A DNA stretch of 64,000 nt from Escherichia coli (GTDB taxonomy: Bacteria > Pseudomonadota > Gammaproteobacteria > Enterobacterales > Enterobacteriaceae). The notes below the pieces were generated by a model that was not told the origin of the DNA, made no database searches, and worked only from the letters and a program-made list of their open reading frames with translations. Below, piece after piece: positions 61,234 through 61,580 of the stretch (position 1 is its first letter; each line of letters starts with the position of its first letter). Where the stretch lies: assembly GCF_024223415.1 (NCBI RefSeq), contig NZ_CP100500.1. The stretch is one strand, 5' to 3'. The position numbers and the translations under genes were made by a program.

Positions 61234-61550
61234 AAATTCTCCTGTAAAACGCGGAATATACCGTACCTCTTAGCGGGGAAAAACAGGGTTATGCGGCAAC
61301 GTCGAAATTAAATGTGATCTGCCACGCCTTTTATCACAAAAGTGTCTCCGGAAGTACAATGCAAATTTGCCTGGCAAAATAAGGATAATCAACATATTAC
61401 GAATCGCTGCACACCTGTGCTGATGACTACTGCGCAGAGAAACAAATGTGCAAGAGAAAGCGCTATTTCTCCCCATGCAAAGAGTGAAAAATCGCTTTGA
61501 AAGGCCATCATGATGGGGTTATATCAGATCAAGCGGTGAGAAAGCGTATT

Positions 61551-61564
61551 TGCACAAATGTGCA
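61551..61564. promoter_or_regulatory. Inverted repeat TGCACA-AA-TGTGCA just upstream of the sorC-like RBS (candidate operator)
   Basis: 6-bp arms with a 2-bp spacer, about 17 bp before the ATG; a related AAATGTGCA motif recurs at 61444..61452. Confidence 0.35.
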
Positions 61565-61580
61565 GAACCAGGAGGCGGCA

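Follow-up and report, generated by a model that had tools for sequence, protein, structure and literature searches.

Conserved palindromic boxes on both sides of a predicted promoter upstream of sorC in Escherichia coli are candidate operators of the sorbose regulator SorC

Where does SorC, which regulates the L-sorbose (sor) operon, act on the DNA that controls its own gene? The question is raised by a 347-bp spacer in Escherichia coli contig NZ_CP100500.1 (assembly GCF_024223415.1), which lies between rluF (minus strand, ending at 61233) and the ATG of sorC at 61581. A stretch of 64,000 nucleotides of this contig, called the window below, was analyzed, and all coordinates refer to it. The local order is lysC, yjbD, rluF, the spacer, sorC (61581-62528), a short-chain dehydrogenase/reductase (SDR) gene (62598-63404), and the IIA, IIB, IIC, and IID genes of a mannose-family phosphotransferase system (PTS); the cluster is the sor operon. 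SorC represses the operon without sorbose and activates it with sorbose (Wohrl et al. 1990, cited in PMC12817954 and PMC2943609), and the protein is a tetramer with two pairs of DNA-binding domains (PMC2943609, PMC12817954). An earlier, sequence-only reading of this DNA had described an inverted repeat next to the ribosome-binding site (RBS) of sorC, with a half-site repeated upstream, and had proposed both as SorC operators. As described below, the spacer holds three such boxes, and we consider it likely that they are SorC operators, each full box being bound by a dimer of the N-terminal helix-turn-helix (HTH) domain, which flank a conserved, imperfect candidate sigma-70 promoter. Since sorC heads the operon as its first gene, such boxes would govern the whole sor operon and not the regulator alone.

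The three boxes in the spacer are as follows.
61551-61564, no strand assigned: O_P, the proximal candidate SorC box, TGCACAAATGTGCA, with perfect 6-bp arms around a 2-nt spacer and the core GCAC-N4-GTGC at 61552-61563.
61439-61452, no strand assigned: O_M, the middle candidate box, of which only the right half-site, gaaACAAATGTGCA, is retained.
61408-61421, no strand assigned: O_D, the distal candidate SorC box, TGCACACCTGTGCT, with one mismatch to the full palindrome and the core GCAC-N4-GTGC at 61409-61420.

O_P ends 5 nt ahead of the AGGAGG RBS (61570-61575) and lies within the conserved block ATTTGCACAAATGTGCAG (61548-61565). The coordinates and sequence that the sequence-only reading had given for the inverted repeat directly before the RBS, 61551-61564, were exact. 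Its upstream half-site, the 9-mer AAATGTGCA, is indeed present at 61444-61452, and the repeat that is really shared is longer, comprising the 11 nt ACAAATGTGCA at 61442-61452 and 61554-61564, with starts 112 bp apart. The conserved block at O_M, CAAATGTGCAAnAnAA, extends from 61443 to 61458. O_D, which had been overlooked, is found further upstream, 31 bp from O_M and 143 bp from O_P. With about 14 to 18 bp, the palindromic site TTGCACAAATGTGCA has a size suited to a dimer of DNA-binding domains.

Taken alone, the window gives weak evidence against a chance origin, as the counts of palindromes and 9-mers do not exceed those of shuffled sequence. A perfect 6-2-6 inverted repeat is expected 0.08 times per 347-bp spacer, or 0.7 times if spacers of 0 to 8 nt are allowed. 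For AAATGTGCA, 1.1 copies are expected per 64 kb, and at least two copies occurred in 29 of 100 shuffles, while TGCACANNTGTGCA with up to two mismatches was found twice against an expectation of 3.6. The sole non-random feature within the window sequence is clustering: the core GCAC-N4-GTGC has only two matches in the 64 kb, both upstream of sorC (shuffle mean of 0.92 for the whole window). Because the single-sequence counts were not significant, significance had to come from a comparison across genomes. Within the species, the sor promoters of E. coli are at least 97.9% identical to one another and therefore vary too little to inform.

A species-representative genome collection was scanned with intact SorC, which gave 39 enterobacterial loci with 70 to 99% protein identity, in genera including Escherichia, Pseudocitrobacter, Citrobacter, Klebsiella, Raoultella, Enterobacter, Mangrovibacter, Cedecea, Kluyvera, Pantoea, Erwinia, Serratia, and Entomohabitans, plus more distant homologues. 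The genes sorD-F-B-A follow downstream in 35 of the 39. O_P is located at -30/-31 from the start codon at every locus, with identical arms in 38; the Serratia copy differs only at the outermost base, and elsewhere only the central base varies (A or T). The core GCAC-N4-GTGC has 77 matches in the 330 bp upstream of the 39 sorC genes, against none in the other ~213 kb of these loci. Moreover, in a footprint set of 27 upstream regions, made non-redundant at less than 90% identity and averaging 65% in pairwise comparison, column conservation reached 96% for O_P, 94% for O_M, 88% for O_D, and 94% for the block GGTTATATCAGATCAAG, against 48 to 66% in the spacers. In O_D, the core is kept and the centre is free to vary. 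The sequence-only reading had named loss of the motif from orthologous sor promoters as the result that would refute it; with O_P at all 39 loci and its upstream half-site 94% conserved, the motif passed. The conserved blocks, including those upstream of O_D described below, persist where a gene other than rluF adjoins the region (Pantoea, Erwinia, Serratia, and Entomohabitans), and thus belong to the sor region. A palindrome and repeat that arose by chance and have no function would agree with the window counts; nevertheless, the sites recur in all orthologues and in other phyla, at conserved positions and distances, so that this explanation is effectively refuted.

The distances between the blocks are also conserved. 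O_D and O_P are separated by 143 bp in 35 of 36 sequences, O_M and O_P by 112 bp in 36 of 40, and the TATATC block (see below) and O_P by 32 bp in all 40. The three Kluyvera loci have O_M as a full palindrome, TGCACAAACGTGCA, at 101 bp from O_P, which is 11 bp, or one helical turn, shorter. In Yersinia and Brenneria, the O_D-O_P distances are 144 and 143 bp and the TATATCA-O_P distance is 32 bp, and the O_M half-site is absent. The upstream half-site that had been paired with O_P is conserved, but it is missing from Yersinia and Brenneria, and the more deeply conserved partner of O_P is O_D. We found no basis for the earlier remark that the spacing is typical of autoregulatory operators; the relevant property is its rigid fixing at 112 bp (101 bp in Kluyvera).

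The Kluyvera loci (L035-L037) differ in gene content as well. Their rluF-pepE interval contains a sorC-like gene (70% identity) and a shikimate-dehydrogenase-like gene, with no sorDFBA, and still keeps O_P, the -10 block, and the full-palindrome O_M 11 bp closer. A shikimate-dehydrogenase-like gene is also found in the SorC-linked cluster of Brenneria.

The protein itself points to the same kind of site. The intact E. coli allele aligns with Klebsiella pneumoniae SorC (PDB 2W48) over residues 1 to 315 (E = 1.5e-182), and the first 62 residues of SorC encoded here differ from 2W48 at one position. SorC has the architecture of a family regulator, with a Pfam Sugar-bind domain (PF04198, E = 1.4e-80) and N-terminal HTH matches, and it also matches DeoR (8R7Y) and LsrR. 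Its DNA-binding domain aligns with that of Bacillus subtilis DeoR (E = 1e-8), in which R34 and R39, the counterparts of SorC R35 and R40, touch bases in the DeoR-operator structures (PMC11229326). The half-sites are one base apart, TTGCACA for SorC and TTGAACA for DeoR (PMC11229326). SorC thus resembles DeoR in having a homologous DNA-binding domain, both base-contacting arginines, a near-identical half-site, and a tetrameric state, and the DeoR operator likewise combines one full palindrome with one degenerate or half site, as O_D and O_M do here. The spacer within the palindrome is longer in DeoR (TTGAA-N6-TTCAA, OL18) than in SorC (TGCAC-N4-GTGCA). By analogy with B. subtilis DeoR, one SorC HTH dimer would occupy each full box, TTGCACA-N2-TGTGCAA.

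Four Firmicute homologues from the first scan (43 to 48% identity) adjoin genes for a GFO/IDH/MocA oxidoreductase and an RpiA-like protein, not sorbose genes. All four have a box in the promoter region, for example TTGCACAATTGTGC, or the tandem pair TTGCACAATTGTAC and GTGTACATTTGTGCAA, 20 bp apart and abutting the RBS, and their recognition helix, GIYRTTISR, is identical to that of SorC. A protein search and nine further loci extended this survey. The Yersinia mollaretii regulator (63% identity) belongs to a sorbose-type PTS operon and is preceded by exact boxes at -304, -167, and -23; exact boxes also precede the Brenneria regulator (56%, with SDR, alcohol dehydrogenase [ADH], and shikimate-dehydrogenase-like genes), at -302, -174, and -31. 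Paenibacillus polymyxa, Metabacillus (in a glucitol PTS operon), and Exiguobacterium, where two boxes stand in tandem at a 20-bp distance, likewise have boxes at their regulators. So does Oceanobacillus, with a box at the RBS and another ahead of the SDR gene. Together, the box-bearing regulators with 43 to 63% identity come from Terrilactibacillus, Paenibacillus (two), Pseudalkalibacillus, Bacillus, Exiguobacterium, Metabacillus, Oceanobacillus, Yersinia, and Brenneria, and their exact or near-exact boxes usually form tandem pairs 19 to 20 bp apart. The neighbouring genes vary among sorbose PTS, glucitol PTS, GFO/IDH oxidoreductase with an RpiA-like gene, and SDR/ADH genes. Judged from these loci, the box travels with the regulator and not with the target genes or the pathway.

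The recognition helix marks which regulators have the box. Boxes occur at 12 of 13 further regulators (40 to 63% identity) that have an IYRT-type helix or a close variant, so that motif and regulator co-occur; regulators with the helix IYRT(T/S)ISR carry the box, whereas 17 of 19 distant homologues with other helices (e.g., LSRVKVYR) have no site. The box matches in Anaerolineae (L055 and L058, two related metagenome-assembled genomes sharing one common site) equal the chance expectation among 19 loci and were not counted as support. In the sorbose-type operons of Streptococcus caviae and Enterococcus saccharolyticus, the helix reads IHRxTISR and the palindrome TCACA-N2-nGTGA. The pairing of IHR with TCAC..GTGA and of IYR with GCAC..GTGC, seen in two related lineages only, possibly reflects covariation of regulator and operator specificity.

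These data bear on whether another transcription factor, such as a global regulator of sugar operons, could bind the boxes. The link between SorC and the box is drawn here from sequence, and blocks resembling CRP and IHF sites, listed below, imply that further proteins probably bind the region. Yet the box accompanies genes for SorC-like proteins with the IYRT helix in both Firmicutes and Proteobacteria, whatever the operon, it is missing where the helices are different, and its half-site closely resembles that of the homologous DeoR domain. We consider another factor quite improbable as the main ligand of the boxes.

Two observations on these loci are recorded separately. In Oceanobacillus, the exact box TTGCACAATTGTGC (L073, 4116) lies between the regulator and the SDR gene, suggesting a separately controlled promoter for the structural genes. 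The helix is also polymorphic within E. coli, reading IYRTTISR in the window, in K. pneumoniae 2W48, and in Firmicutes, and IYRTNISR in O157:H7 (T37N; codon 37, at 61690 in the window; L002).

Between O_M and O_P, the conserved sequence resembles a promoter.
61497-61502, plus strand: predicted -35 hexamer TTGAAA, preceded by the conserved GAAAATnnCTTT and assigned by conservation.
61520-61525, plus strand: predicted -10 hexamer TATATC, inside the conserved block GGGGTTATATCAGATCAAG (61515-61533), 94% conserved.

The two hexamers are 17 bp apart, and the sequence between them is variable but constant in length. The aligned -35 sequence is a full consensus in Brenneria (TTGACA) and near consensus in Yersinia (TTGACT), 18 bp before TATATC. 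A conserved CTTTGAA, a spacer of 17 to 18 bp that varies in sequence and not in length, and TATATC are likely to represent a sigma-70 promoter with a start near 61532, and a weak promoter suits an activator-dependent operon. In the frame of this predicted start, the box centres fall at about +26 (O_P), -87 (O_M), and -118 (O_D), and O_P spans about +19 to +32, directly 5' of the RBS. A minor possibility is an alternative promoter further upstream, with a -10 element GATAAT/CAGAAT at 61384 and a -35 element TGCAAA, which would place O_D at about +12; its -35 element is poor, and the block reads better as an IHF-like site.

Several neighbouring observations and discarded candidates concern the same segment. 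The block GGGGTTATATCAGATCAAG is conserved well past the -10 hexamer and holds a GATC (Dam) site, and TTATATCA is kept even in Yersinia and Brenneria; the block may be an additional protein site or a constrained start region. The calls that a promoter scanner made of its own (TTATCA/TACAAT) are not conserved in other genera. A TTGCA element suggested a sigma-54 promoter that would overlap O_P; this was rejected, as inspection by eye showed neither a GG at the distance required for -24 nor conservation at that place.

Given its position in the predicted 5' untranslated region (UTR), O_P could instead act as an RNA hairpin by the Shine-Dalgarno sequence, tuning translation or mRNA stability. It could fold into a stem of 7 bp closed by a 4-nt loop, and in most species it directly adjoins the RBS. 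However, the fold is no better than that of shuffled sequences (z = -0.99; 38 of 200 shuffles are as good), a search of Rfam gave no match, and the arms are invariant rather than covarying. Moreover, O_D and O_M repeat this sequence on the upstream side of the promoter, where a hairpin role does not apply. We therefore regard the hairpin as very improbable.

The proposal that the inverted repeat and its upstream repeat are SorC operators is thus strengthened by conservation in orthologues and enlarged by O_D; the conserved sites and their geometry are plain from the comparison, and we strongly infer binding by SorC. How the boxes would work together is less certain. In the most economical model, a SorC tetramer would, as long as L-sorbose is absent, connect the upstream boxes to O_P, enclosing the promoter in a loop of ~143 bp and repressing sorC and the operon. 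With the inducer, the bridge would be lost, and SorC on the upstream boxes would aid RNA polymerase, together with the CRP- and IHF-like sites at their fixed offsets. A fixed-geometry loop switch of this kind, kept at 143 to 144 bp in three enterobacterial families and converted by the inducer from a loop repressor to an upstream activator, is one that we propose tentatively, as a possibility that we consider much less likely than the identity of the boxes.

Several points weigh against parts of this interpretation. The looping, and the repressing and activating roles of the individual boxes, are what we infer from the layout. The O_D-O_P distance of 143 bp corresponds to ~13.6 helical turns, a non-integral number. 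For DeoR and CggR, a tetramer occupies two half-operators separated by about two helical turns (PMC11229326; PMC2943609), and this spacing of ~20 bp is not found in E. coli, where the boxes are 31, 112, and 143 bp apart. A consensus promoter scanner did not call TTGAAA/TATATC, whose -10 hexamer has no T at position 6, and the promoter was assigned by conservation only. In the literature searched, no SorC operator, binding motif, footprint, or sor transcription start was found, and an earlier in silico mention of the motif is possible, as the original SorC papers and regulon databases (e.g., RegPrecise) lay beyond the search. With respect to the spacing, nothing is conserved 20 bp from O_P in the 27 enterobacterial upstream regions, and the two-turn layout does appear in the Firmicute homologues, with their tandem boxes 19 to 20 bp apart. 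On this comparison, the enterobacterial sor layout is a variant arrangement of the family operator.

A serious alternative mechanism is that SorC binds the boxes without forming a loop. O_P would then be a roadblock or occlusion site past the transcription start, and O_D and O_M would be independent activation sites used with sorbose. The operator of CggR lies past the transcription start and represses without a distant partner (PMC11229326), several Firmicute homologues have boxes only beside the RBS, and the non-integral number of turns in 143 bp agrees with such independence. Conversely, the O_D-O_P distance is invariant to 1 bp across three enterobacterial families despite sequence divergence in between, and independent sites would be expected to drift more; the sole change in length, in Kluyvera, is one full helical turn. 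In addition, a single palindrome takes one dimer, and stable binding of DeoR needs both half-operators (PMC11229326). On balance, we find binding without a loop doubtful, although it deserves to be taken seriously.

Comparison with known systems helps to place the layout that we favor, in which SorC operators flank the promoter. The half-operators of DeoR, a pure repressor, fall within 39 bp at -60 to -21. The sor boxes, by contrast, are spread over both sides of the promoter at distances of 31 and 143 bp, and SorC represses as well as activates. B. subtilis CggR belongs to the winged-helix subclass of the SorC family and is, like SorC, encoded by the first gene of its own operon (gapA), autoregulated, and a tetramer on tandem sites; its operator lies past the start (+32 to +77), as O_P does at about +26. 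Unlike sor, CggR uses another type of DNA-binding domain, GGGAC repeats, and a single 45-bp operator, and it neither has upstream sites nor activates. Operators more than 100 bp apart that enclose a promoter under helical-phase constraint, with architectural and CRP sites, are found with GalR (O_E/O_I), AraC (O2/I1), and NagC, and AraC switches from a repression loop to activation. These proteins belong to families unrelated to SorC, and looping at sor is suggested by the conserved spacing only. The sorCDFBAME operon of K. pneumoniae has an orthologous regulator and the same order of sorC, SDR, IIA, IIB, IIC, and IID genes, and in the window sorC is a pseudogene. Overall, the sor boxes are very probably, on this comparative evidence, a transcription-factor operator of a known family with an unusual layout that spans the promoter in fixed geometry.

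Further conserved elements lie upstream of O_D.
61310-61331, no strand assigned: CRP-like site AAATGTGATCTGCCACGCCTTT (AAATGTGATC...CTTT), with an invariant left half, TGTGA, and a weak right half.
61334-61345, no strand assigned: weak fourth box-like palindrome TCACAAAAGTGT (CAC-N4-GTG), 92% conserved, only tentatively assigned to SorC.
61361-61369: conserved block GCAAnTTTG.
61387-61399, plus strand: IHF-consensus-like block AATCAACATATTA (core WATCAANNNNTTR), 21 bp upstream of O_D, a pattern match to a weak consensus.

In the CRP-like site, the AAA/TTT flanks are conserved, and the right half matches at 2 of 5 positions in E. coli and 3 of 5 in Citrobacter; by eye, 16 of 22 positions agree with the 22-mer CRP consensus. 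TGTGA is located 96 bp upstream of O_D in E. coli and Yersinia alike. With its centre at about -211 relative to the predicted start, the site is more distant than classical class I or II activation allows. At the IHF-like site, the AGAATCA..TTA block is conserved, and its offset from O_D is the same in Yersinia. The fourth box is separated from O_D by 75 bp in 31 sequences and 74 bp in 3. A 1-bp deletion at 61371-61376 (CTGGC-AAAATAAGG) in the window and in Escherichia sp. MOD1 (L040) gives the distance of 74 bp, which is also found in Entomohabitans (L034). The outer bases of this far-upstream box, TCACAAAAGTGT, are like those of the Lactobacillales variant TCAC-N4-GTGA. A CytR-like reading of TGCAAATTTGC (61360-61370) was discarded, as the octamer matches were partial only.

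The regulator gene downstream of these sites is disrupted in this strain.
61581-62528, plus strand: sorC, a pseudogene here, with a TAG at 62247-62249 (W223*).

The stop codon noticed in the sequence-only reading is real, resulting from TGG to TAG at 62248, and RefSeq flags sorC as a pseudogene with an internal stop. W223* removes 93 C-terminal residues, from the sugar-binding and oligomerization domain, and leaves the N-terminal DNA-binding domain intact. The allele is present in 7 of 2866 sor-positive complete E. coli genomes (S51, SCU-316, O78 strain 3, GPEC1446, NCTC10444, NCTC9112, and KV7), of which S51 is 100% identical to the window over the region. It is linked to a single-nucleotide polymorphism (SNP) at a synonymous site, 62240; strains with the linked SNP only and the closest non-identical alleles are intact. 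Since all boxes are intact in the W223* strain, the loss of sorC appears recent. The suggestion that truncation leaves the operator unoccupied is plausible, and the strain probably has no functional tetramer for the intact sites. Because SorC is also an activator, W223* would be expected to give weak, uninducible sor expression rather than simple derepression.

The sor operon is present in 2872 of 5426 complete E. coli genomes, about half. In sorC-negative strains, the match is limited to the first 35 nt of the spacer, so that everything to the right of ~61268 is sor island. Individual genomes show other changes: strain 54 has an IS1 insertion in the region from sorC to the SDR gene (61234-62600), and in 2013C-3492 the control region matches only as far as O_M (61300-61452). 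The 69-bp gap between sorC and the SDR gene contains a perfect AT-rich inverted repeat, CGTAAT-AAAA-ATTACG, at 62548-62563, which has no T-run and is thus not terminator-like. Elsewhere in the window, the S51 annotation places a lysine riboswitch upstream of lysC.

A 2010 paper gives DeoR and CggR as the only family members with known operators at that time (PMC2943609). In the literature that we searched, DNA operators of the family are described only for DeoR, CggR, and LsrR, the 14-mer of O_P appears in no paper, and a search for LsrR sites gave nothing usable; the literature found on K. pneumoniae SorC covers genetics and protein structure, with no operator. The structure of SorC has reportedly been available since 2009, and its dual behavior as repressor and activator is said to have been known since 1990. 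SorC is the namesake of a large family of sugar-responsive regulators, and conserved candidate operators make its mechanism directly testable. The motif also enables prediction of regulons for SorC-like regulators in Firmicutes and Enterobacterales. The sor operon has lately attracted attention for marking pathogenic E. coli lineages and contributing to their fitness (PMC12817954), and knowledge of its control region, along with recognition of regulator-null alleles like W223*, should aid the reading of Sor phenotypes. If true, the loop switch would establish which operator the SorC family's founding member uses, and an ancestral tandem operator with sites ~20 bp apart, still present in Firmicutes, would have been drawn apart into a layout that spans the promoter.

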